A DNA stretch of 64,000 bases from an uncultured Candidatus Rokubacteria bacterium (GCA_963708025.1 CAVPSB010000023.1:64001-128000); one strand, 5' to 3'; counted from the stretch's first letter, positions 48,511 through 59,865 are shown. Translations and numbers: made by a program. Notes: generated from the sequence alone by a model not told the origin.

Positions 48511-49209
48511 ATGAGCGTCTCACGCGTCGATCCGGCCGAGCTGGGCGCCCTCCCCGCCGTGGCGCCGTTCGTGGTCCGGCCCGGCTGCGTCCCCGGGCGA
48601 CTCCCGGCGGCCGCGACCGGGCTGTCGTCGCTCGATGCGCTCCTCGGCGGCGGCTTCCCCCGCGGACGGATCTCGGAGGTCGTGGGCCCCCGGGGCTCCG
48701 GGCGGACCAGCGTGCTCCTCGGGAGCCTGGCGCGCGCGACCGGGAGCGGCGCGCTCGCCGCCCTCGTGGACGTGACGGACCGGCTGGATCCCGCCTCGGC
48801 CCGGGCGGCTGGCCTGACGCTCGGGCAGCTCCTGTGGGTCCGGTGCGGCGGGGATCTCCGGACGGCGCTCCAGGCGGCCGATGTGATCGTGCGCGGCGGC
48901 GGCTTCGACCTGGTGGCCGTGGACCTCGGCGAGCTCCCCCCGTGGCGGCTCCAGCGCGTCCCGGCGGCCGTCTTCGTCCGGCTCCAGCGGGCGGTCGAGG
49001 GGACGCCGACGACGCTCGTTCTCGCCGGGACTCGACGGGTGGCGGGGAGCATGGCCACCGCGGCGGTCACCCTGTCCCGGACGCGACCCCGGTGGCAGCG
49101 TGGCGGCCCCGGCCTCCTGGCCGGGCTGGCGACGGAGGCGCGGCTCGTCCGCTCCCGCGAGCGCGCTCCGGGCGCCTCGGCGGCACTGGTGTGGACCGCG
49201 GGTGAATGA
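48511..49209 (+). CDS. imuA: ImuA-like RecA-fold protein
   Basis: TGLSSLDALLGGGFPRGRISEVVGPRGSGRTS; position upstream of imuB and dnaE2. Confidence 0.8.
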   Translation: MSVSRVDPAELGALPAVAPFVVRPGCVPGRLPAAATGLSSLDALLGGGFPRGRISEVVGPRGSGRTSVLLGSLARATGSGALAALVDVTDRLDPASARAAGLTLGQLLWVRCGGDLRTALQAADVIVRGGGFDLVAVDLGELPPWRLQRVPAAVFVRLQRAVEGTPTTLVLAGTRRVAGSMATAAVTLSRTRPRWQRGGPGLLAGLATEARLVRSRERAPGASAALVWTAGE

Positions 49210-49383
49210 ATGGGCGCCTCCGGCTCCCCCCTCCCCCCAGCCAAAGGCTCAAGGCCATCGAAGGATCGGGTAGGCGGGAGGTTCTACGATCCCCGGCTCC
49301 GCACATGAATGGGCGCGCCTCCGGCTCCCCCCTCCCCCCAGTGGGTGGGGGAGGGGGGCTGGGGGGGTAGGAGGGAGGTTCTA
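49206..49383 (+). repeat. Two tandem G/C-tract REP-like copies (6 and 7); copy 6 interrupted by a CCAAAGGC..AAGGCC hairpin
   Basis: ATGAATGGGCGC(GC)CTCCGGCTCCCCCCTCCCCCCAG at 49206 and 49305, both ending GGGAGGTTCTA. Confidence 0.85.
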
Positions 49384-49384
49384 A

Positions 49385-50863
49385 TTGTTCGCGTGTCTGT
49401 GGGCGCCCCACTTCGCGGCGGCGGCGCTGCTGCGGAGCGATCCCGGACTGCGCGACCGGCCGGTGGCCGCCCTCGCGGGGACCGAGACGACCCGCACGGT
49501 GTTCGAGCCGAGCCCGGAGGCGTGGGCCGCTGGCGTCCGGCCGGGCATGAGCGCCGGCGAGGCGGTCACGCGCGCCCCCGGCCTCGTCGGCCGGCTGCGT
49601 GACCTCGACGCCGAGCGCTCGGCGGCGGCCGCGCTCCTCGACGTCGCCATGGCCACCTCGCCGCGCGTCGAGGCCGCCGCGCCCGACCGCGTTCACCTCG
49701 ACCTGACCGGGCTCGAGCTCTTCGGTGACGAGCGGCAGATCGGCGAGCGGCTCGCGCTGGGAGCCGCCAGCCTGGATCTGCCGGCGCGCGTTGGCATCGC
49801 GGGGAGCCGCACGGCCGCCGGCCTGGCGACGCGCGCGGCGGCGGGGGTGACGATCGTCCCGGCCGGGGAGGAAGCGGCCTTCCTCGCGCCGCTCCCGGTG
49901 GCGCTCCTCGACCCGCCGGCCGAGCTGGCGACGGCGCTCGAGCGGTGGGGAGTCCGCACCCTGGGCGAGCTGGCGGCGCTCCCGGCGGCCGGGCTTCTCG
50001 CGCGGCTCGGCGTGGAGGCCGCATCGCTCCGGGCCCGCGCGCGGGGTGGGGACGACCAGCCCTTCGTCCCGTACGTGGCCGCCGAGCCGTGCGTCGAGGC
50101 GCTCGCCCTGGACTGGGAGGTCACCCACCTCGACGGGCTCGTCTTCGTCCTTCGCCATCTCCTCGAGCGGCTGGCGGCGCGCCTGGCGCTCTCCGAGCAG
50201 GGCGCCCGCGCCCTCGCGCTGACCGTGGGCCTCGCCGATGGGGCCGTGCACCGGCGGCGACTCGCGCTCGTGGCGCCGCTCCGCGAGGCCCGGACGCTCC
50301 TGGCCCTCCTCCGGGCCGATCTCGACGGGCTCACGCTGCCCGCCCCCGTCGTCTCCCTCGCCGTGGAAGCTGAGCCGGCGCGACTCCGTCCGGCGCAGCC
50401 GGATCTGCTCACCCCGAAGCGCCCGAGCCCGCACGAGCTGGCCCGGACGCTCGGCCAGCTCGGCGCGCTCGTCGGCCCGGACCGGGTTGGCGCCCCCGCG
50501 CTGGGGGACACCCATCGGCCGGACGCGGTCGGCGTGGTCCCGTTCACCGGGGCGGTCGCGCGCCAGGCCGCGGTCGCGGCCCTGACGCTCTCCGACGCCG
50601 GCCGGCTGGCCTGCTGCCGCTTCGCCCCGCCGCTGCCGGCGGTGGTCACCGCGCGCGACGGCCAGCCGCGCCATGTCGAGGCGCCGGGGGTGGCGGGCGC
50701 GGTCGCCGCCTGCGCCGGGCCGTGGCGGACAGCGGGGGAGTGGTGGACCGACACCATCTGGTCGCGCGAGGAGTGGGACGTGGCCCTGGCCGACGGCGCC
50801 GTCTACCGCCTCGTCCTCGACCGCGCCCGCGGCGCCTGGACAGTCAACGCCGTCTACGACTGA
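49385..50863 (+). CDS. imuB: ImuB, inactive Y-family polymerase
   Basis: MFACL, GVRPGM, FLAPLPV..RWGVRTLGELAAL, QPDLL clamp motif, GPWRTAGEWW. Confidence 0.85.
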   Translation: MFACLWAPHFAAAALLRSDPGLRDRPVAALAGTETTRTVFEPSPEAWAAGVRPGMSAGEAVTRAPGLVGRLRDLDAERSAAAALLDVAMATSPRVEAAAPDRVHLDLTGLELFGDERQIGERLALGAASLDLPARVGIAGSRTAAGLATRAAAGVTIVPAGEEAAFLAPLPVALLDPPAELATALERWGVRTLGELAALPAAGLLARLGVEAASLRARARGGDDQPFVPYVAAEPCVEALALDWEVTHLDGLVFVLRHLLERLAARLALSEQGARALALTVGLADGAVHRRRLALVAPLREARTLLALLRADLDGLTLPAPVVSLAVEAEPARLRPAQPDLLTPKRPSPHELARTLGQLGALVGPDRVGAPALGDTHRPDAVGVVPFTGAVARQAAVAALTLSDAGRLACCRFAPPLPAVVTARDGQPRHVEAPGVAGAVAACAGPWRTAGEWWTDTIWSREEWDVALADGAVYRLVLDRARGAWTVNAVYD

Positions 50864-51068
50864 GCGGCCCCTCAGAATCCGACCGTTTTGTGGTGCATCA
50901 GGTGGGACCTGGCTCCGGCTGTGACGCAATCGCCGAGGATGGGTTAGCGCGGATAAGCCCGGATGGGGGTCCGCGGGCAGGGACCGTGAAGCGGGTGGGC
51001 GCAGCTCCCCCGGCCCGACTGAGCGCGAACGGCTCATGCACAGGCAGGGATAGGCACGGGAGGGCATC

Positions 51069-51584
51069 ATGACCGATCTCATCCCGATTGGGCGGATTGC
51101 GCGATCGATTCTCGTCATTCGTGGGCACCGCATCATGCTGGACGCGGATCTGGCTGAGCTCTACGGGGTCCGGACGAAGGCGCTCAATCAGGCTGTCAAG
51201 CGCAACCGAGAACGCTTTCCTGAGGATTTCATGTTCCGGCTGACTCGGGAGGAAAAGGACGAGGTGGTCACCGAGTGTGACCACCTCCGACGACTCAGGT
51301 TCTCCCCCGTGTTGCCCCACGCCTTTACCGAGCACGGTGCCATCATGCTCGCCAGCATCCTGAACAGCCCCGCTGCCGTCTACACCAGCATCCAAGTCGT
51401 CCGCGCGTTCGTACGGCTCCGAGAAGCGATGGCCTCCCACAAGGACCTGGCCCGCAAGCTCGAGGCGCTGGAAAAGAAGTACGACGCACAGTTCAAGGTA
51501 GTGTTCGATGCGATCCGGCGGCTGATGGAGCCACCTCCGCGACCGACGGTGAAGATCGGGTTTCGCCCGGAGAGCGACCGCTAG
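51069..51584 (+). CDS. ORF6N domain protein
   Basis: IRGHRIMLDADLAELYGV.TKALNQAVKRN.ERFPEDFMF, AFTEHG, IGF C-terminus; less GC-biased codons. Confidence 0.92.
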   Translation: MTDLIPIGRIARSILVIRGHRIMLDADLAELYGVRTKALNQAVKRNRERFPEDFMFRLTREEKDEVVTECDHLRRLRFSPVLPHAFTEHGAIMLASILNSPAAVYTSIQVVRAFVRLREAMASHKDLARKLEALEKKYDAQFKVVFDAIRRLMEPPPRPTVKIGFRPESDR

Positions 51585-51880
51585 TGCCGTTCCAACTAGC
51601 CCCGATCGGCGATTACCGGAGACCGATCGCCATACTCGGACCGCTCGGACAGCGACGTTTGGGGGATCGCATGCGTTCGAATGACGGCCACCCACGGGGC
51701 GTTGACATCCACCCGTGGAGCGAGCTTGGCGCGGCGCCAGACCTGGGGCTCGCGTGGTCGCGATCATTCGACGAATCGCCGATCGGGGCTAGATGAGCCA
51801 AAATGGACAAGCGATTCTTGAAGCACCGACGTACCGCATTCCTCGAACGCACTGGCTAGAACAAGTTGGAACGGCACTAG
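51581..51880. mobile_element. Second copy of the 107-bp MITE (inverted) carrying a nested insertion
   Basis: 300 bp minus 193 bp (insert plus one CTAG) equals 107 bp, matching 29413-29519. Confidence 0.88.
51600..51788. mobile_element. Nested 189-bp MITE with 15-bp perfect TIRs and CTAG target duplication
   Basis: CTAG|CCCCGATCGGCGATT...AATCGCCGATCGGGG|CTAG; single CTAG at the empty site 29501-29504. Confidence 0.88.
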
Positions 51881-51893
51881 CCAAGCGGCGGCG

Positions 51894-54800
51894 ATGCCCT
51901 ACGTCGAGCTCTCCGCCGCCAGCGCCTTCAGCTTCCTCGAGGGCGCCTCCCAGCCGGAGGCTCTTGCCGAGCAGGCGGCGGCGCTCGGCTACCCGGCCCT
52001 CGCGCTTGTCGACGCCGACGGGCTCTACGGCGCGGTGCGCTTCTACAAGGCCGCGACCGAGGCCGGCGTCCGCCCACTCGTCGGCACCGCGCTCACCCTC
52101 GACGACGGCGCGCGGCTGCCGGTCCTCGTCGAGACGGCGGAGGGCTACCGGAATCTCTGCCGCCTGCTCACCCGCGTCAAGTTCCGGGCGGCCAAGGGAA
52201 GGGCCCGCGCCCGGCTCGAGGACTTGGAGGGCGAGACCGGCGGGCTCGTCTGCCTGACCGGCGGGGTCGAGGGCCCGCTGGCGGCGGACCTCGGGGCCGG
52301 GCGCCGGGACGCGGCGCGCCGAGCCCTCGAGCGGCTGGTCGGCCTCTTCGGCCGCGGCCGGGTGTACGTGGAGCTCCAGCGGCACTGCACGCGCGAGAGC
52401 GAGCTGCGGACGCGCCGGCTCCTCGAGCTGGCCGGCACGCTCCGCCTGCCGGTGGTCGCGACCAACGGCGTCCGCTACGCCACGCCGCCCGAGCGCCGGG
52501 TCCTCGACGTCTTCACCGCGGTCCGCCACAAGACGACGCTGGACGCCGCCGGCCGGCGCCTCGAGCCGAACCTCGAGCGCTGGCTCAAGCCTCCCGCCGA
52601 GATGGCGCGGCTCTTCGCCGACCAGCCGGCGGCGGTGGCCGAGACGGCCGAGCTGGCCGCGCGCCTGACCTTCACGCTGAAGGACCTCGGTTACCGCTTC
52701 CCGGACTACCCGGTGCCCGGCGGCGGCTCCCCGGGCGCCCATCTGCGCGCGCTGACCGAGGCCGGGGCGCGCGAGCGCTACCGGACGGTCACCGAGCGCG
52801 TCCGCCGCCAGCTCGCCCGTGAGCTGGACCTGATCGAGACGCTCGACCTGGCGGGCTACTTCCTGATCGTCTGGGACATCGTCCGCGAGTGCCGGGCGCG
52901 CGGGATCCTCGTCCAGGGCCGCGGCTCGGCGGCCAACAGCGCGGTCTGCTACAGCCTCGGCATCACCGCGGTCGATCCCGTCGGGATGGATCTCCTCTTC
53001 GAGCGCTTCCTCTCCGAGGAGCGCCACGAGTGGCCGGACATCGACCTCGACCTGCCCTCCGGTGACCGCCGCGAGGCGATCATCCAGTACGTCTACGAGC
53101 GCTACGGGCGGACGGGCGCGGCGATGACGGCCAACGTCATCACCTACCAGCCGCGCCGCGCCGCCCGCGAGGTGGGGAAGGTCCTCGGCTTCCCGCCCGA
53201 CCTCCTCGACCGCCTCGCGAGGTTCCTGCCCAACTTCGAGTACCGCGACCCGACCGACCGGGACCCCGCCCGCCACCTCGCCCGGGTCGGCCTCGACCCC
53301 GCCCACCCGCGCGTCCGCGGCTTCGCTGAGCTGTGGGCACGCGTCCAGGGGCTGCCACGGCACCTCGGCCAGCATTCGGGAGGCCTGGTCCTCTGCGCCG
53401 GCCGTCTCGACGAGATCGTGCCGCTCGAGCCGGCGACCATGCCGGGGCGCACCGTGGTCCAGTGGGACAAGGACGACTGCGCCGACATGCGGATCGTGAA
53501 GGTGGACCTCCTGGGCCTCGGCATGATGGCGGTCCTCGAGGACGCCCTCGTCCTGTGCCGGGAGGCCGGCCACGACGTGGACCTCGCCCACCTGCCGCCG
53601 GACGACCCGGCGGTCTACGCCGCGCTCCAGCGGGCCGACACGATCGGCGTCTTCCAGGTGGAGAGCCGCGCCCAGATGGCGACCCTGCCGCGGCTCCGCC
53701 CCGAGCGCTTCTACGACCTGGTGGTGGAGGTCGCGATCATTCGCCCGGGCCCCATCGTCGGCGACATGGTGCATCCCTACCTCGCCCGCCGCGCGGGCCG
53801 GGCGCCGGTCGCGTATCCCCATCCATCGCTCGCGCCAATCCTCGAGCGCACGCTCGGCGTCCCGCTCTTCCAGGAGCAGCTCCTCCGTATGGCGATGGTC
53901 GCCGCCGGCTTCACCGGCGGCGAGGCCGAGGAGCTGCGCCGGGCCCTGGGCTTCCGGCGCTCGGAGGCGCGGATGAAGGCGGTCGAGGCGAAGCTCCGCG
54001 CCGGCATTGCGCGGAACGGGATCGCCGGCGAGGCGGCCGAGGAGATCGTGCGGGCCATTACCTCCTTCGCGGAGTACGGGTTCCCCGAGTGCGTGGTGGG
54101 CGATACGCGCGTGCTCGACGCCGACACCGGACGCCGAGTTCGGATCGATGATGTCGCGGCCGGACGCGTGCCGATTTCGAGCACGCTGGCCTGTGACGTG
54201 CACCTGCGACTCCAGAAGCGTCGTGTCCTCGGCGCTACGGCGAGCGGTCCCCGGATGGTCTACCGGCTCCGCACCGCTCTCGGCCGAGAGCTTCTGGCCA
54301 CGAGCGAGCACCCGCTGCTGACGATGAGCGGCTGGCGCCCACTCGGCGAGCTTCGCGTCGGCGATCATATCGCGGCGGCCCGCGCACTTCCTGGCCTGGG
54401 GCGGAAACGTTGGCCGCGCCACCACCTGATCGCTCTGGCCGACCTCATCGCCGAGGGCAACCTGTGTCACCCCACGACGATGTACTTCTACACGACAGAT
54501 TGCCGGCAACGCGACGAGTTCGTGGGCGCGGTCGAACAGTTCGACAACACGCGCGCTACCATTGCTCGTCACCGGAGCTGTTTCAGCGTGCACGTTCGCC
54601 GCCGGGACAGAGGGCGTTCCAACGGGGCGATCGAGTGGGCGAAGACGCTCGGAATCTGGGGGTGTGGCGCGCGGGAGAAATACCTGCCCGACGAGGTGTT
54701 CGAGTTACGGGACGCCGATCTCGCGCTGCTGCTCGCTCGTCTGTGGGAGGGCGACGGCTCGCTCTCGTCTAGGGGTCACGCCACATACGACACTGCGTCC

Positions 54801-56264
54801 CACCGGCTCGCTGAGGACGTTCAGCACCTCCTCCTCCGACTCGGGATCGTGTCTCGGCTCTACCGGCGTATTCGCCCGTATCGGGACCGGCAGGTTATCT
54901 GCTTCGTCGTCACCGTGACCGGCCGGGGTAACCTCCGACGGTTTTATCGTCGAATCGCGAGTCGATTTCTCGACTTCCGAAAGCGTCAGATGGCTCGAAC
55001 GCTGGCCGCGTCAGAGGCTCTTCGGGCCTCGCGGGACATCGTCCCCGTGGGGGTCAAGGCGCTCATCGATGCCGAACGTCGGCGCCACGGTATGACCTGG
55101 GAGGCTGTCGGCCATCGAGCCGAAGTGTCCGTGCGAGCCATCTGCTCGCCGGATCGGTCGAAGCGTGGGTATCGCCGGTGGGTAATTGTCCGGCTGGCCG
55201 AAGCCTTCGACTCGCCCGCGCTCGGCGACCTCGGGACATCCGACCTCTACTGGGACCGGATCACGGCGATCGAACCGATCGGCGTTCAGCCGACGTACGA
55301 CTTGCGCATCGAGGGCGATCACAACTTCCTGGCCAACGATCTCGTCGTCCACAACTCTCATGCCGCCAGCTTCGCGCTGCTGGCCTACGCCAGCGCGTAC
55401 CTCAAGGTCCACTACCCGGCCCAGTTCTACGCCGGGCTCCTCAACAACCAGCCGATGGGCTTCTACCACCCGGCCACCCTCGTCAAGGATGCCCAGCGCC
55501 ACGGGCTCGAGATCCGGCCGGTCGACGTCAGCCGCTCGGAGTGGCCGTCGACCGTCGAGGACCGCGCGGTGCGGCTCGGCCTGATGACCGTGAAGGGCTT
55601 CCGCGAGGCGGCCGGCCGGCGGCTCGAGGACGCCCGGCGGGCGCGGCCCTTCGAGTCGGTGGACGACCTCGCGGCGCGGGCCGGGCTCGTGCGGGAGGAA
55701 CTGGTCACGCTCGCCGACATCGGGGCGCTCGGCGCGCTCGGGCTCACGCGGCGGGGTGCCTTGTGGGAGGTCGAGCGCGCGGCCCGGCCCCCGGGGCCCC
55801 TCTGGAGCGGGCAGGCCAGTCTCCAGGAGCCCTCCCCGCTCCGGGAGATGACCGCGGAGGAGCGGCTCGTCGCCGACTACCGGGGAACCGAGCTGACCGT
55901 GGGGCCGCATCCCATGGCCTTCCGGCGGGCCGACCTCGCGCGGCGGGGCGTCACGCCGGCGGCCGGCCTTCGCGCGCTGCCCGATGGCGAGCCGGTCCGG
56001 GTGGCCGGGCAGGTCATCGTCCGCCAGCGCCCCGGCACCGCCAAGGGCTTCGTGTTCCTCTCGCTGGAGGACGAGACCGGCGTCGCCAACGCGATCGTCC
56101 GCCCCCCGCTCTTCGACCGCGAGCGCGCGGTCATCGTCCACGAGCCGTTCCTGCTGGTCGAGGGGACCCTCCAGCACCAGGACGGCGTCGTCTCGATCCG
56201 CGCCCGGCGCGTCTGCCCGCTGCCCCCGCTCGGCGCCCGCGTCCCCTCCCACGACTTCCGCTGA
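51894..56264 (+). CDS. dnaE2: Error-prone DNA polymerase DnaE2/ImuC, intein-containing
   Basis: SAFSFLEGAS, GRGSAANS, PDIDLD, GQHSGG, VRQRPGTAKG, C-terminal SHDFR (DnaE2-type SRDF motif). Confidence 0.95.
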   Translation: MPYVELSAASAFSFLEGASQPEALAEQAAALGYPALALVDADGLYGAVRFYKAATEAGVRPLVGTALTLDDGARLPVLVETAEGYRNLCRLLTRVKFRAAKGRARARLEDLEGETGGLVCLTGGVEGPLAADLGAGRRDAARRALERLVGLFGRGRVYVELQRHCTRESELRTRRLLELAGTLRLPVVATNGVRYATPPERRVLDVFTAVRHKTTLDAAGRRLEPNLERWLKPPAEMARLFADQPAAVAETAELAARLTFTLKDLGYRFPDYPVPGGGSPGAHLRALTEAGARERYRTVTERVRRQLARELDLIETLDLAGYFLIVWDIVRECRARGILVQGRGSAANSAVCYSLGITAVDPVGMDLLFERFLSEERHEWPDIDLDLPSGDRREAIIQYVYERYGRTGAAMTANVITYQPRRAAREVGKVLGFPPDLLDRLARFLPNFEYRDPTDRDPARHLARVGLDPAHPRVRGFAELWARVQGLPRHLGQHSGGLVLCAGRLDEIVPLEPATMPGRTVVQWDKDDCADMRIVKVDLLGLGMMAVLEDALVLCREAGHDVDLAHLPPDDPAVYAALQRADTIGVFQVESRAQMATLPRLRPERFYDLVVEVAIIRPGPIVGDMVHPYLARRAGRAPVAYPHPSLAPILERTLGVPLFQEQLLRMAMVAAGFTGGEAEELRRALGFRRSEARMKAVEAKLRAGIARNGIAGEAAEEIVRAITSFAEYGFPECVVGDTRVLDADTGRRVRIDDVAAGRVPISSTLACDVHLRLQKRRVLGATASGPRMVYRLRTALGRELLATSEHPLLTMSGWRPLGELRVGDHIAAARALPGLGRKRWPRHHLIALADLIAEGNLCHPTTMYFYTTDCRQRDEFVGAVEQFDNTRATIARHRSCFSVHVRRRDRGRSNGAIEWAKTLGIWGCGAREKYLPDEVFELRDADLALLLARLWEGDGSLSSRGHATYDTASHRLAEDVQHLLLRLGIVSRLYRRIRPYRDRQVICFVVTVTGRGNLRRFYRRIASRFLDFRKRQMARTLAASEALRASRDIVPVGVKALIDAERRRHGMTWEAVGHRAEVSVRAICSPDRSKRGYRRWVIVRLAEAFDSPALGDLGTSDLYWDRITAIEPIGVQPTYDLRIEGDHNFLANDLVVHNSHAASFALLAYASAYLKVHYPAQFYAGLLNNQPMGFYHPATLVKDAQRHGLEIRPVDVSRSEWPSTVEDRAVRLGLMTVKGFREAAGRRLEDARRARPFESVDDLAARAGLVREELVTLADIGALGALGLTRRGALWEVERAARPPGPLWSGQASLQEPSPLREMTAEERLVADYRGTELTVGPHPMAFRRADLARRGVTPAAGLRALPDGEPVRVAGQVIVRQRPGTAKGFVFLSLEDETGVANAIVRPPLFDRERAVIVHEPFLLVEGTLQHQDGVVSIRARRVCPLPPLGARVPSHDFR
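54090..55355 (+). mobile_element. 422-aa intein with LAGLIDADG homing endonuclease
   Basis: YGFPE|CVVGDT..ATSEHP..LADLIAEG..LARLWEGDG..TYDL..HNFLANDLVVHN|SHAAS; distinctly less GC-biased codons. Confidence 0.95.
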
Positions 56265-56305
56265 AGTGCCCTCAGCGCGCCATCGGCACGCCATCGGCAC
56301 GACGA

Positions 56306-56334
56306 TTGACGCCGGGAGATCGCCCGGGTAGACT
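56306..56334 (+). promoter_or_regulatory. Sigma70-type promoter of the riboswitch leader
   Basis: TTGACG-17 nt-TAGACT, implying a transcription start near 56341. Confidence 0.75.
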
Positions 56335-56341
56335 GGCGGCG

Positions 56342-56450
56342 GATCGCGGGAGCTCGGGCAAGCCGAGCTGAGAGGGCAGCCAGGGGACGTGGAATCTCTC
56401 GCTGCCGACCGCTGGAACCTGACCTGGGTAATGCCAGCGCAGGGAGCTCG
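56342..56450 (+). ncRNA. TPP riboswitch (THI element)
   Basis: GCGGGAGC..GCTGAGA..GACCGC..GAACCTGACCTGGGTAATGCCAGCGCAGGGAG matches the TPP aptamer core; extra GGCAGC/GCTGCC stem. Confidence 0.92.
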
Positions 56451-56453
56451 CCG

Positions 56454-56492
56454 ACGCCGTGCCGCGACTCCGCGGTGCGGCGTTTTTCGTTT
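56454..56492 (+). terminator. Intrinsic terminator (riboswitch expression platform)
   Basis: ACGCCGTGCCGCG-ACTC-CGCGGTGCGGCGT followed by TTTTCGTTT, just before the GAGGAG SD. Confidence 0.75.
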
Positions 56493-56505
56493 CGAGGAGG
56501 AGACG

Positions 56506-57390
56506 ATGACCAGACGGTTCGTGCTCGTGGTTCTGGCGCTCGGGATCGGGGCGATGCTGACCGGAGGCGTGAGCACTGCTGACGCCCAGCCGAAGTCCCT
56601 CCACCTCGTGCTGACGCCATCGCAGAAGCCGACCGACCTCCTGGTGGCCGGCGAGAAATTCGGCGTCGCGCTCGGGAAGCTGGTCGGCATTCCGGTTCGG
56701 GTGACCGTCGCCTCCGACTACGCGGCCGTGGTGGAGGCGCTCCGTAACAAGACTGCCGACCTCGCGTTCCTGCATCCTGCCGGCTACGTGCTCGCCAACC
56801 GCGAGGCGAAGGCGATGATCATCGCCCAGGACCAGTGGCACGGCAACACGTCGTACCGGTCCCGGATCTTCGTCCGCAAGGACTCGGGGATCAAGACCCT
56901 GGAGGAGCTTCGGGGCAAGACGATCGCCTTCGTCGATCCGACGAGCACGTCGGGATACGTGTGGCCGATGGTCCTGCTCATCAAGCGCGGCCTGGTCCAG
57001 AACCGCGATCCCAAGACGTTCTTCAGGGAGGCGGTCTTCTCCGGCGCCCACGATGCCGCGCTCCAGGCCCTGCTCAATGGCCACGTCGATGCGCTCGCGT
57101 CGTTCGATCAGGCGCGCGAGCAGTACCTGAAGGACCCGGCCGAGCGCGAGAAGGTGACCTGGGTGGCCGAGACCGATCCCATCCCGGAGGGCGGCATCGC
57201 GGGCCGCGAGGGCCTCGACCCCCCGGTCGTGGCGAAGGTCAAGGCGGCGCTGCTGCAGATGCGGGGACCCGAGTATGCCCAGCTCCTCAAGGACCTCTAC
57301 GACATCGACGGCTTCGAGCCCGTCGACGACCGGATCTACGAGCCGGTCCGGGCGGCCATGGACATGCTGGGCTGGCGGCCCAAGCGGTAG
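56506..57390 (+). CDS. PhnD/PtxB-family ABC substrate-binding protein
   Basis: Signal peptide; DYAAVVEAL, YRSRIFV, FVDPTSTSGY, SGAHD. Confidence 0.9.
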   Translation: MTRRFVLVVLALGIGAMLTGGVSTADAQPKSLHLVLTPSQKPTDLLVAGEKFGVALGKLVGIPVRVTVASDYAAVVEALRNKTADLAFLHPAGYVLANREAKAMIIAQDQWHGNTSYRSRIFVRKDSGIKTLEELRGKTIAFVDPTSTSGYVWPMVLLIKRGLVQNRDPKTFFREAVFSGAHDAALQALLNGHVDALASFDQAREQYLKDPAEREKVTWVAETDPIPEGGIAGREGLDPPVVAKVKAALLQMRGPEYAQLLKDLYDIDGFEPVDDRIYEPVRAAMDMLGWRPKR

Positions 57391-57391
57391 C

Positions 57392-57498
57392 GGGCGGGCC
57401 GATGAGCGTCGCATCGCGTCGTCGTTCGGATGGCCTTCGGCCTGTGGGCGCTGCTCGCTCCTCGGCCCGCCCCAGAGAACTTGACTCATCTGCCGTGA
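57392..57498 (+). repeat. Structured intergenic repeat, short form
   Basis: Same outer stem and tail as 35840-36085. Confidence 0.75.
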
Positions 57499-57555
57499 GG
57501 CCGGCGGTTCAAGGAACCTGAGGACGCCGCGGCGCGACGGGTCCCGGCACCGCCG

Positions 57556-58302
57556 ATGATCGAGGTGGAGGGCCTTCGTGTCGTCCTTCCGCCGGACACC
57601 GTGGCGCTCTACGGCGTCGACCTCACCATCGAGGCCGGCGAGCGGGTGATGATCATCGGCCGGAGCGGCGCGGGCAAGACGACCTTTCTCCGCTCGATCA
57701 ACCGGCTCGTCGAGCCGACCGCCGGGACCATCCGGGTCGCCGGGCGTCCGGTGACGGGCGCCGGGCCCACCGAGCTCCGTCAGGTCCGGCGCCAGATCGG
57801 GATGATCTTCCAGCAGTTCAACCTGGTTCGCCGGGTCTCGGTGCTGACCAACGTCCTGGCCGGGCGGCTCGGCTACGTGCCGCCGCTGCCGAGCCTCCTC
57901 GGCCGCTTCCCACCGGCGGACCGGGCGCTCGCGTTGGACTGCCTGGCCCAGGTGGGGCTGGCCGACTTCGCGGACCGCCGGGCCGACACCCTCTCCGGCG
58001 GCGAGCAGCAGCGGGTAGCGATCGCTCGCGCGCTGGCCCAGTCGCCGAGCGTGATCCTGGCCGACGAGCCGACGGCGAGCCTCGACCCGCAGCTCACCGG
58101 GAGCATCATGGGAATCCTCAAGCGGATCAACGAGACGCGCGGGCTCACCCTGGTGGTGAGCCAGCACCAGCTCGAGACCGCGCTCGACTACGCCACGCGC
58201 ATCGTGGGGTTCCGGGCGGGGCACGTCTGCTTCGATGGGCCGCCGGCCGGGGTCACGTCCGCGGTGGTCGAGGCCATCTACGGGGAGGAAGCGCGGAGAT
58301 GA
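57556..58302 (+). CDS. PhnC-like ABC ATP-binding protein
   Basis: [51 protein letters not shown]. Confidence 0.92.
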
Positions 58303-59046
58303 CGCGCTGGCGGGCAGCGCTCCTGGTCGGCGTCGCGGCACTCGCCTGGGCTGCCTGGGACACCGGCGCCGATCCGGTGCGCTTCGTCTATGGCACCCCG
58401 TGGATGCTCGACTTCGTCCGGCGCTCGCTGCCGCCGGACTTCCGGGTGTTGAGGCCGGCCCTGGAGGGCGCCGTCAAGACGTTCGAGATCGCGCTCCTCG
58501 GCACCGCCGCCGCGGCGGCCCTCGCGGTGCCGCTCGGCTTCCTGTCGGCCCGGAACGTCGCTCCGCCGGCGCTCTTCTACCCCGCCCGGGCCGCGCTCAA
58601 CTTCCTGCGGAGCATCGACACGCTGGTGTACGCCCTCCTGTTCGTGGCGGCGGTGGGGCTGGGCCCCTTCCCCGGGGTGCTGGCCGTCGTGGCGTACACG
58701 ACGACCTCGCTGGCCAAGCTCTACTCGGAGACGATCGAGGGGATCGACCCGGGGCCCGGCGCCGCGATCACGGCGACCGGCGCGACGCGCCTGCAGGTGC
58801 TGCGCTTCGGCGTGCTGCCCCAGGTGCTGCCGCTGTTCCTCTCCTATATCCTCTACCGGCTGGAGTCGAACATCCGGGCGGCGACCGTGCTCGGGTTCGT
58901 CGGCGCGGGCGGGATCGGGTTCTACCTCCAGACCTACCTGCGCATGATCGACTACCCGGCGGCGTCGACGGTGCTGCTCGTCACCATCGTCATGGTGATG
59001 GTGGTTGAACTTCGCCAGCTCGCGCCTCCGCGCCCGCCTCATCTAG
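58299..59046 (+). CDS. PhnE-like ABC permease, +1 frameshift near 59008
   Basis: GLGPFPG, AKLYSE.IE, LESNIRAATVLG.VGAGGIG; removing one A gives VVDFASSRLRARLI* ending at 59046. Confidence 0.9.
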
Positions 59047-59071
59047 TCCTTTTCGAGGGAGCTCGGATCAG

Positions 59072-59138
59072 GTCCTCCGGCTCCCCCCTCCCCCCAGTGG
59101 GTGGGGGAGGGGGGCTGGGGGGGTGGGAGGGAGGTCTC
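59072..59138 (+). repeat. G/C-tract REP-like repeat, copy 8
   Basis: Same unit between convergent genes, abutting the pncA stop. Confidence 0.85.
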
Positions 59139-59865
59139 AAAAGTCGATGTCGGCCGACTGGATGCGCTTGACGCCGGCGCCCGTCATGTCCTGCCACGCC
59201 TTGCCCAGGGAGCCCCCGGCGTCGATGCCGCGGGTGGCGTCCTCGATGACGTAGGCCTCGAAACCGGCCTTCCGCGCGTCGAGGGCCGACCAGGCCACGC
59301 AGAAGTCGGTGGCGAGCCCCACGAAGAACGTGCGCCCGAGACCACGCTCCTTCAGATAGCCGGCCAGCCCCGTCGGCGTCTTGCCGTCGGCCTCGTAGAA
59401 GGCCGAGTACGAGTCCACCTGCTGGCGATAGCCCTTCCGGATGATGAGCTGGGCGTGCGGAATCTGGACGTCCTTGTGCAGGTCGGCCCCCGACGTTCCC
59501 TGGATGCAGTGGTCGGGCCAGAGGACCTGGGTGCCGTAGGGGAGCTGGATCGTCTCGAACGGCTTCTTGCCGGGATGCGACGACGCGAACGAGACGTGGC
59601 CTGGTGTGTGCCAGTCCTGGGTGAGCACGACGTTCGGGAAGGCCCGGCCGAGCCGGTTGACGAGGGGGATGATCTGGTCCCCTTCCTTGACCGGCAGGCT
59701 GCCGCCGGGGACGAAGCAGTTCTGGACGTCGATGACGAGCAACACGTCCTGAGCGCCCGGCTTGGTCTTGCCCTGGGCGAACGCGGCCCGGAGGCCTCCC
59801 ATGCCGGTCAGGACGAGGGTGCCGGCGGCGCACGTGAGGAACTGGCGGCGAGTCGGCATGTTCAT
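59137..59865 (-). CDS. pncA: Nicotinamidase/pyrazinamidase with Tat signal peptide
   Basis: TRRQFL; VIDVQN.F, TQDWH, LWPDHC, DSYSAF, GLATDFCV. Confidence 0.92.
   Translation of the reverse strand: MNMPTRRQFLTCAAGTLVLTGMGGLRAAFAQGKTKPGAQDVLLVIDVQNCFVPGGSLPVKEGDQIIPLVNRLGRAFPNVVLTQDWHTPGHVSFASSHPGKKPFETIQLPYGTQVLWPDHCIQGTSGADLHKDVQIPHAQLIIRKGYRQQVDSYSAFYEADGKTPTGLAGYLKERGLGRTFFVGLATDFCVAWSALDARKAGFEAYVIEDATRGIDAGGSLGKAWQDMTGAGVKRIQSADIDF

Follow-up and report, generated by a model that had tools for sequence, protein, structure and literature searches.

A three-gene ATP-binding cassette (ABC) importer of the phosphonate-uptake family (Transporter Classification, TC, 3.A.1.9) is predicted to be driven by an OFF-type thiamine pyrophosphate (TPP) riboswitch in an uncultured member of the Rokubacteria. 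The operon and its leader occupy positions 56306 to 59046 of a 64 000-nucleotide stretch, here called the window (G000:C23:64001-128000), from the metagenome-assembled genome G000 (8.17 Mb in 49 contigs, 99.67% complete, 8.18% contamination). Affiliation of G000 is with Rokubacteria/Methylomirabilota; its close protein relatives and the related loci bear the titles Candidatus Rokubacteria or Methylomirabilota. Rokubacteria are an abundant uncultured soil lineage. Characterised members of TC 3.A.1.9 carry phosphite, hypophosphite, phosphonates and, most recently, glycerol phosphates. To our knowledge, most known vitamin B1 transporters were found by riboswitch-guided annotation, and none of them is in the phosphonate-uptake family.

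An initial annotation, made from the sequence alone, had described a phosphonate-type transporter repurposed for a thiamine-related cargo, and the conserved switch, the absence of ThiC and the binding-protein pocket all support that proposal. We consider it very probable that the operon encodes a thiamine-related importer under a working TPP switch. With less assurance, we read it as probably a TPP-repressed importer of an anionic compound of the thiamine pathway that supplies the pyrimidine moiety, with hydroxymethylpyrimidine phosphate (HMP-P) as the leading candidate. The narrower claim that the cargo is HMP-P or the diphosphate HMP-PP is tentative, and we place it not far short of even.

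At high TPP the aptamer would be bound, helix P1 would close and a 14-bp terminator would form, ending transcription before the binding-protein gene. At low TPP, in the direction of regulation that we infer, the aptamer 5′ flank would pair with the terminator 5′ arm and the operon would be transcribed. The exported binding protein would capture a ligand with a phosphate- or phosphonate-like head and a bulky, probably aromatic tail, and would pass it to a PhnE-like permease powered by a PhnC-like ATPase. In G000, which is without ThiC or a CytX-type permease, the system would most likely bring in the pyrimidine half of thiamine. The preferred cargo, HMP-P, would be converted by ThiD to HMP-PP, which ThiE would couple with self-made thiazole phosphate and from which ThiL would finish TPP.

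The leader: promoter, aptamer and terminator

The leader begins with a promoter-like site of the sigma-70 type, TTGACG-17-TAGACT, at 56306..56334 (+), the only such match in 56100-59400 (shuffles: 0.2). TTGAC and TAGACT recur in the same place in the six related leaders of the window's own family (f1) that were compared besides its own, with the exception of L008, whose cupin gene directly adjoins the binding-protein gene.

A TPP riboswitch aptamer of the thiC type follows at 56336..56455 (+). The match to the Rfam family RF00059 covers 56342-56449, and an outer P1 pairing, GGCG/CGCC, extends it. It scores 55.3 bits (E 4.2e-8), narrowly above the gathering score of 54.3; a long P3 insert and one P1 mismatch account for the low value. 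RF00059 is the only Rfam family above threshold in the whole window. CUGAGA and ACCUGACCUGGGUAAUGCCAGCGCAGGGA are conserved among the aptamers. CUGAGA of the pyrimidine-sensor arm and ACCUGA...GGGUAAUGCCAGCG.AGGGA of the pyrophosphate-sensor arm are both found in the window and are invariant across 16 aligned aptamers.

Helices P2-P5 are also supported by sequence variation. Among 23 aptamers aligned to R1, our own aptamer model, which detects thiC-type, thiS-type and f7/f12-type aptamers (families defined below), compensatory changes on both sides occur in 14 of 23 pairs. Paired cells make up 97.3% of this alignment, compared with 89.0% in shuffles (a value matched by 0 of 500) and with 29-51% in slid-partner controls, figures to be read with the bias in favour of structure that comes from fitting the alignment to R1.

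The expression platform is an intrinsic terminator at 56453..56489 (+), directly 3′ of P1: a 14-bp stem (hairpin 56453-56484, 10 G-C pairs) with the loop ACUC, then a U run. It is the only terminator-like hairpin in 56100-59400 (shuffles: 0.8). At minimum free energy, 56330-56512 folds into the aptamer and then the 14-bp terminator (-91.6 kcal/mol, z -2.9). When the transcript is cut before the terminator 3′ arm, the computed fold pairs the aptamer 5′ flank GGCGGCGG with the terminator 5′ arm, a candidate antiterminator. A Shine-Dalgarno sequence, AGGAGG, can be read at 56495..56500 (+), 5 nt before the ATG at 56506. The promoter, the TPP aptamer, the strong terminator with its T-tract and the Shine-Dalgarno sequence named in the initial annotation are thus all present.

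A contig from an RNA library, X18 (219 nt), covers 56395-56610 with 10 differing letters and takes in the 3′ half of the aptamer, the terminator and the start of the binding-protein gene. It is a weak hint of expression, since DNA carry-over is possible. No sequencing run contained half of the sampled words; the matches were mostly short conserved pieces of other organisms, namely the aptamer core and ABC motifs, and stretches without coverage are uninformative.

Distribution of the riboswitch among orthologous operons

Orthologues were sought with the binding protein as query against 251 genomes of the phylum, and the gene content of the compared loci was taken from tblastn and Pfam matches only. 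Besides f1, we distinguish a sister family (f2) and the further families f7 (genus g61) and f12 (G048). Some genomes are flagged as unpublished (G034 and G218 within the ThiC tallies; G034, G044 and G217 within the ortholog search), and no specific claim is built on them. Ortholog identities drop abruptly from about 51% to 41%. Orthologues at least 59% identical keep the order binding protein, ATPase, permease in the loci that were compared. Every one of the 18 related loci retrieved is titled Rokubacteria, Methylomirabilota, Rokuibacteriota or uncultured bacterium; in the ESM Atlas the fourth-nearest cluster is from Acidobacteriota, which we treat as a lead only.

In f1 the operon is found in 18 of 21 genomes, and RF00059 is over threshold in 14 of the 18 (the window and 13 of the 17 others, the latter at 60.8-71.3 bits). 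The exceptions are G245, without an aptamer but with promoter and terminator kept; G247, where a cupin gene abuts the operon; and G240 and G231, with partial aptamers. Terminators are present in the f1 leaders of the window, G228 and G246. In genus g4, also of f1, the aptamer stops just short of the ATG, by a few bases, and the Shine-Dalgarno sequence GGGAGG is overlapped by its 3′ strand, so control there would be translational.

The strongest operon switch is that of f12 (G048, one of one genome), where an RF00059 match of 79 bits lies upstream of two tandem binding-protein genes, an ATPase gene and a permease gene. The operon occurs in 12 f7 genomes, seven of which have a TPP element (7 of the 10 f7 leaders covered by one RF00059 scan). 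These seven are full-length with long inserts and score 42.2-46.8 bits (E 1e-5 to 1e-6); they have all the core motifs, and a terminator follows each. G020 keeps a remnant (32.4 bits), and G012, G013 and G009 have no element; in G015 the contig reaches only about 200 nt upstream of the operon, too little to judge the switch.

None of the 58 orthologous operons of f2 has a TPP element (RF00059 was applied to 25; R1 to all 58, alone for 33). The expectation of the initial annotation that orthologues carry the riboswitch therefore holds in f1, f7 and f12 and fails in f2, and the transporter exists outside TPP control too. No shared alternative leader or Pho box was seen in the f2 leaders, whose upstream regions are short and variable and were given no formal motif search.

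Other features were observed around the f2 genes. In many of the operons (L022-L036, L066-L108) a TATGCT or TATCCT box stands only 7-10 nt ahead of the start codon, a spacing like that of leaderless transcripts; the start codons come from a simple prediction rule and may be misplaced. A c-di-GMP-I-GGC riboswitch (RF03167, 72.6-74.1 bits) lies beside three orthologues (L025 2526-2608, L030 2515-2597, L074 327-409), on the opposite strand, facing a divergent gene and away from the operon. Orphan paralogues in f2 genera g18 and g27 (L037, L039, L046 and L047; 55-58% identical) are without an adjacent ATPase or permease gene or a TPP riboswitch; their pocket is almost unchanged, with Q or G at position 112.

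Riboswitch types and the regulon swap

The f1 operon riboswitch is 72-81% identical, variable stems included, to the thiC riboswitches of f2 and of ThiC-positive f1 genomes (G245, G246), compared with 53-63% to the thiS type. R1 scores separate the two classes of leader (77-96 bits for thiC type, 54-60 bits for thiS type). A thiC-type riboswitch thus now drives the f1 transporter. The f7 and f12 operon riboswitches resemble one another, sharing CTAGGGG.GTC ... GGACTGAGA ... GAACCTGATCTGGGT.ATGCCAGCGTAGG.AAGCGGC, and are unlike the thiC riboswitches of f7 itself, which are of the thiC type. The operon has therefore gained TPP control at least twice, from different sources.

Five of five f2 genomes have exactly two RF00059 matches each: one immediately precedes thiC, its coordinates agreeing with the ThiC positions found separately, and the other is of the thiS type. 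G000 also has two, on this operon and upstream of a cluster of thiG, thiE and a DAO-family (thiO-like) gene. By these matches the regulons are swapped: f2 places the thiC-type switch on thiC and G000 places it on the transporter operon. A whole-genome search found no PF02133 member and no CytX-like match in G000; with the other switch on the thiG cluster, the operon is therefore the only riboswitch-controlled transporter of this genome.

Two further arrangements were seen. In G048 there is no RF00059 match within 700 nt upstream of thiC (L155, G048:C195:200-1000), though its operon switch is so strong. Genus g4 has a third TPP riboswitch, upstream of a PF02133 permease gene (CytX-like, of the nucleobase:cation symporter-1, NCS1, family; L161 203-314 and 423-1763, L162 4538-5902, L163 334-1692); a GntR-aminotransferase fusion lies downstream of the permease gene in L161 and L163, and L161 also has pdxS/pdxT-like genes.

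ThiC loss

ThiC (PF01964) matches were found in 3 of 21 f1 genomes, 119 of 159 f2 genomes and 8 of 21 f7 genomes; ThiC is present in G048 and was not found in G000. Genomes with a switch-bearing operon have no ThiC match in 19 of 22 cases (f1 12 of 14, f7 7 of 7). ThiC-negative genomes that are 95-99% complete include G000, G235, G242, G243, G244 and G010. ThiC-positive genomes account for 44 of the 58 switch-less f2 operons; the other 14 genomes are 68-86% complete (n = 13) or 91% (G124).

The association also appears within genus g61, where ThiC is missing in all seven switch-bearing genomes and present in three of the four with a lost or decayed switch (G012, G013, G020). ThiC-positive G245 (f1) and G012 (f7) have lost the aptamer independently, with the terminator hairpin kept. 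The events behind the association fall in two orders of the class. Judged from the sequences compared, the link between riboswitch and thiamine on this operon is not a chance one.

The binding-protein pocket

The binding protein belongs, by its profile scores, to the PF12974/TIGR01098 family (215.1 bits against a cut-off of 27; 203.9 against 112.05), but it is neither PhnD proper nor of the PtxB/HtxB type. It fails the PhnD equivalog TIGR03431 (172.5 against 261.1 bits). Its match to PF09084, the NMT1 family of ThiY, is just 26.1 bits over residues 61-146 (profile 20-101 of 216) and not a whole-domain match, and there is no ThiB model among the nine NCBIfam families found at E up to 0.01. Among proteins of solved structure, PtxB is the closest in sequence (E 6.5e-26; structural alignments give 25-29% identity), followed by ArrX, HtxB, AioX and PhnD. 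The best Protein Data Bank matches of the AlphaFold2 model (predicted local distance difference test score 90.3) are PtxB, ArrX, AioX, HtxB, PhnD and GpxB, with template modelling (TM) scores of 0.75-0.79.

Pocket residues are Y72, W111, H112, Y117, S147-T148-S149, H182, F200, D201, E228, G229, G230 and R234. Ligand contacts were mapped from Te_PtxB (as given in part of PMC5700983) through the printed alignment and from E. coli PhnD by aligning the K-12 gene with BLASTP. All six phosphoryl-head residues are kept: Y72, Y117, S147-T148-S149 and H182 align with Y55, Y100, S130-T131-S132 and H160 of Te_PtxB, and with Y47, Y93, S127-T128-S129 and H157 of E. coli PhnD. The tail side is different. 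The PtxB cap Y208 is replaced by G229 (A229 in f2, f7 and f12), in the same column as D205 of E. coli PhnD; PtxB D22 corresponds to S39 and PhnD E177 to Q202. In Te_PtxB the Y208 cap, held by D22, gives a P-H...pi contact and excludes larger ligands (PMC5700983, in part), and in E. coli PhnD E177 and D205 pair with the ammonium of 2-aminoethylphosphonate (PMC12718374, in part). Neither the aromatic cap with D22 of PtxB/HtxB nor the acidic pair of PhnD is found in the binding protein. The STS and His phosphoryl-binding motifs of the initial annotation are therefore borne out (S147-T148-S149, H182), and the phosphite and 2-aminoethylphosphonate determinants are not retained.

The signature W111-H112, F200-D201, P-E228-[G/A]229-G230, R234 is present in 44 of 44 operon-type first-copy sequences from f1, f2, f7 and f12. 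The only pocket changes in f2 are Y117F, G229A and those at two peripheral positions. A search of 1.84 billion cluster representatives supplied 103 full-length sequences, of which P0124 alone has the whole signature; the P-E-A-G half is retained in the fragments P0132 and P0202. Neighbours that are 33-40% identical mostly have R111 ... P-N-D-T, the Asp205 type. We read the pocket as combining a phosphoryl-head site with a new and larger tail pocket, and Trp and Glu would be the residues expected around an aminopyrimidine ring.

The Tyr117/Phe117 split was considered as a marker of switch-bearing and switch-less operons and rejected: it fits f1 versus f2, but switch-less f7 sequences also have Tyr. 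Tandem second binding-protein copies occur in f12 and three f7 genomes (L045 7045-7842; L114 1961-2833; L118 1972-2844; L120 1596-2438), under the same TPP riboswitch; they have R111, G112, N228 and D229, an Asp205-like tail pocket. A second binding protein of G000, paired with a PhnE gene elsewhere, is 32% identical and has the motif IPNDP of the more canonical Asp205 type. The pair (L122, G000:C30:75000-91000) is followed by Usp, CBS-domain, class-III aminotransferase and GFO/IDH/MocA oxidoreductase genes and may be a separate aminophosphonate uptake locus.

The cargo and its alternatives

The inventory of thi genes suggested in the initial annotation gave for G000, beside the missing ThiC, ThiD, two ThiE copies, ThiL and three TenA-family genes. 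With thiC lost, ThiD, ThiE, the thiazole genes and ThiL kept, and the f1 switch a redeployed thiC switch, the pyrimidine moiety is the best-fitting cargo. Among its forms we favour the phosphate, because it reconciles the need for pyrimidine with the conserved phosphoryl site. Thiazole phosphate, one of the candidates named earlier, is the least likely of them, since the thiazole branch is kept.

Several points weigh against an HMP-P importer. On the regulatory side, the window aptamer exceeds the RF00059 threshold by just 1 bit and the f7 elements fall short of it. ThiC is present in three switch-bearing genomes (G241, G246, G048), and four genomes lack ThiC yet have an absent or decayed switch (G247, G240, G231, G009). 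Aptamer-bearing genomes are related and hence not independent data points, so the ThiC association is backed by perhaps three to five events and not by 22. The absence of the switch from all f2 operons means that the transporter has a role without TPP control, a pattern that would fit a general scavenger of organophosphates or phosphonates.

Such a phosphorus scavenger would be unrelated to thiamine, with the switch a regulatory accident or a tie between phosphorus uptake and TPP status. Its PhnC and PhnE proteins do pass the NCBI equivalog cut-offs, the switch-less f2 operons have a nearly identical pocket, and in four genomes each of f1 and f7 the switch has decayed or is gone. Different types of TPP riboswitch were, however, recruited twice independently to the same operon, and the switch is maintained with compensatory changes; its presence tracks ThiC loss even within one genus, and the two aptamer deletions in G245 and G012 are in ThiC-positive genomes. 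The failed PhnD equivalog model argues in the same direction, as does the separate Asp205-type PhnD/PhnE pair elsewhere in the genome. As the initial annotation stated, no C-P lyase gene is adjacent, and PhnJ was not found in the whole G000 genome (no search was aimed at ptxD, phnX, phnA or phnW). We regard the scavenger as improbable and as the least likely reading.

A second set of points concerns the thiazole branch. G000 thiG (G000:C7:44956-45690) is spread across four frames; 13 other f1 genomes have the gene intact, and in two other low-contig assemblies it is broken once. Together with a frame shift in the permease gene (below), this suggests that the breaks may be indel errors of the assembly. 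If the three frameshifts were real, the thiazole branch would be gone and the complete vitamer, thiamine monophosphate (TMP) or TPP, would be the needed cargo.

The ThiBPQ system of E. coli imports TMP and TPP. On this alternative the operon would be its functional analogue on a PhnD scaffold: the STS-His site would take the phosphate, and the enlarged tail pocket would accommodate the thiazolium and pyrimidine. The pocket residues speak for this cargo as they do for HMP-P, and E228 and D201 could pair with the cationic thiazolium, much as the acidic pair of E. coli PhnD pairs with its ammonium (PMC12718374, in part). Yet most f1 genomes have intact ThiG, ThiE and ThiD, and a separate riboswitch is retained on the thiazole operon, as in an organism auxotrophic for a precursor and not for the whole vitamin; derivation of the f1 switch from a thiC switch also points to replacement of the pyrimidine branch. 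Import of TMP or TPP thus appears unlikely to us.

Two more points against the HMP-P reading concern uncharged pyrimidines. The three TenA copies of G000 point to salvage of uncharged aminopyrimidines, with no need for a phosphoryl-binding site, and the switch-controlled CytX-like permease of genus g4 could meet the pyrimidine need without this operon. As a further alternative, the importer would resemble ThiXYZ and carry hydroxymethylpyrimidine (HMP), aminomethylpyrimidine (AmMP) or formylaminopyrimidine, with the head residues an inherited scaffold or a co-ligand site. TenA and ThiD are enzymes of aminopyrimidine salvage, the weak NMT1/THI5 match noted above is to the family of ThiY, and HMP is the form exchanged in the sea (PMC11452348, in part). 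Against this, the six head residues are kept over about 45% divergence, which argues for selection for an anionic head; the exceptions are the conservative Y117F of f2, F117 in one f7 sequence (L044) and F72 in one f12 sequence (L045_6026). The PF12974 match is 215 bits against 26 for NMT1. In g4, moreover, the CytX-like permease is the usual HMP candidate, so a second HMP system would be redundant, which argues that the operon has a cargo other than plain HMP. We give an uncharged precursor a slimmer chance still than the complete vitamer.

Two last points bear on HMP-P as such. A THI5-type HMP-P synthase is possible in G000, which has 33 NMT1-family matches; of the six best, four show signal-peptide-like starts. 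We know of no report so far of free HMP-P in soil, though no search was aimed at one.

Comparison with known systems

The closest parallel in logic is the SAR11 thiV gene, which encodes a sodium:solute symporter: in thiC-lacking Pelagibacter with the remaining pathway kept, it is a candidate pyrimidine importer under a TPP riboswitch (PMC11452348, in part). ThiV differs in being a secondary symporter for uncharged HMP, whereas the present carrier is a phosphonate-family ABC system that depends on a binding protein and has a phosphoryl-binding site. ThiXYZ (whose ThiY is of the NMT1/THI5 family) and ThiBPQ likewise serve salvage as ABC importers; they use periplasmic binding proteins of type II and are under the control of THI elements (PMC3766115, in part, citing Rodionov et al. 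2002). Here the binding protein is of PF12974 and the partners are PhnE and PhnC equivalogs, not of the NitT/TauT or ThiP/ThiQ types.

In fold (TM 0.76-0.79), head residues (two Tyr, S-T-S and His) and operon partners the system is like PtxB, HtxB and PhnD (5JVB, 5O2J, 3P7I). Those systems are normally under Pho control, unlike the TPP-riboswitch control seen here. The binding protein differs from PtxB in having Gly for the Tyr cap and Ser for its Asp partner, and from E. coli PhnD in having Q202/G229 for E177/D205, in failing the equivalog model and in coming from a genome in which no C-P lyase was found. GpxB, a binding protein for glycerol-1/3-phosphate (9LF9), resembles it in having no Tyr cap (TM 0.77). 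With the cap lost, GpxB accepts larger-tailed phosphate esters, and its pocket is the largest (PMC12718374, in part); its tail residues are R223 and T247. It is 22% identical in structural alignment and serves carbon and phosphorus nutrition, not a vitamin regulon.

The initial annotation knew of no thiamine transporter in the PhnD family. A full-text literature search, with subscription journals and the supplement of PMC3766115 outside its scope, likewise found no description that links transporters of the PhnD family with thiamine or with TPP riboswitches. The words phn and phosphonate are absent from the main text of PMC3766115 (its supplementary list of 19 transporter groups lies outside this check).

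Operon genes and surroundings

The three genes, all on the plus strand, are those that had been read from the sequence. A PhnD/PtxB-family substrate-binding protein of 294 aa with a signal peptide is encoded at 56506..57390. A PhnC-type ABC ATPase of 248 aa follows at 57556..58302 (TIGR02315, 302.3 against an equivalog cut-off of 266.1), and a single PhnE-type permease at 58299..59171 as assembled (TIGR01097, 265.9 against 216.7). ATPase copies 64-86% identical lie downstream of the binding-protein gene in 12 of 16 loci, and copies 47-50% identical in two distant loci (L048, L049).

The first two genes are separated by a spacer of 165 nt (57391..57555, +), just about 60 nt in G245, in which a long G+C-rich inverted repeat, GCGGGCGGGCCGA ... 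TCGGCCCGCCCC, can be read. The repeat could attenuate transcription or stabilise the upstream part of the transcript. At the far end, one extra A at 59008/59009 shifts the last 12 permease codons, and the open reading frame as assembled, to 59171, has an unrelated tail. The conserved end ...FASSRLRARLI* stops in the shifted frame at the TAG at 59044-59046; orthologues end ...VVDFASSRLRARLV*. The operon end first placed at 59046 thus matches the conserved stop, but is in frame only when the extra A is discounted.

Gene neighbourhood was considered as a functional clue and rejected, as neighbours vary by family and include no thi genes. In the window they are imuA-imuB-dnaE2, an isochorismatase-family gene and malate synthase; in f1, dnaE2, a LysR regulator and a gene of the phosphoenolpyruvate mutase/isocitrate lyase family; in f2, response regulators, hydrolases and others. 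The mutagenesis cassette directly upstream (48511-56264) comprises RecA-like (imuA-type), IMS-family (imuB-type), ORF6N-domain and dnaE2-type polymerase genes. The polymerase has 1456 aa, against 1034-1101 aa in relatives, because of an intein with a LAGLIDADG domain (Intein_splicing residues 771-1154, LAGLIDADG_3 944-1021). Just past the permease gene, at 59080-59135, is a C-run/G-run stretch, CCCCCCTCCCCCC ... GGGTGGGGGAGGGGGGCTGGGGGGGTGGGAGGG. Contig depth over soil runs is very high in the bin 59022-59120, as expected of a repeated element.

Implications

The operon points to a so far undescribed salvage route for a phosphorylated building block of vitamin B1. It is possible, if on balance doubtful, that this is the first importer dedicated to the phosphorylated thiamine intermediate HMP-P, and that a copy of the thiC riboswitch moved onto the transporter after thiC was lost, outliving its gene. 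A thiC-type riboswitch on a transporter would then be a clean example of a regulatory RNA redeployed after gene loss. Annotation pipelines name the operon 'phosphonate transport', so vitamin B1 auxotrophy and cross-feeding in Rokubacteria would be misread. A phosphorylated cargo would change the view of which B1-related compounds are exchanged between microbes and of the ligand range of the PhnD family; in f7 and f12, the range of cargoes would be broadened by the second binding protein, which has a different pocket and shares the switch. If the operon does import HMP-P, phosphorylated B1 precursors would circulate in soil as public goods.

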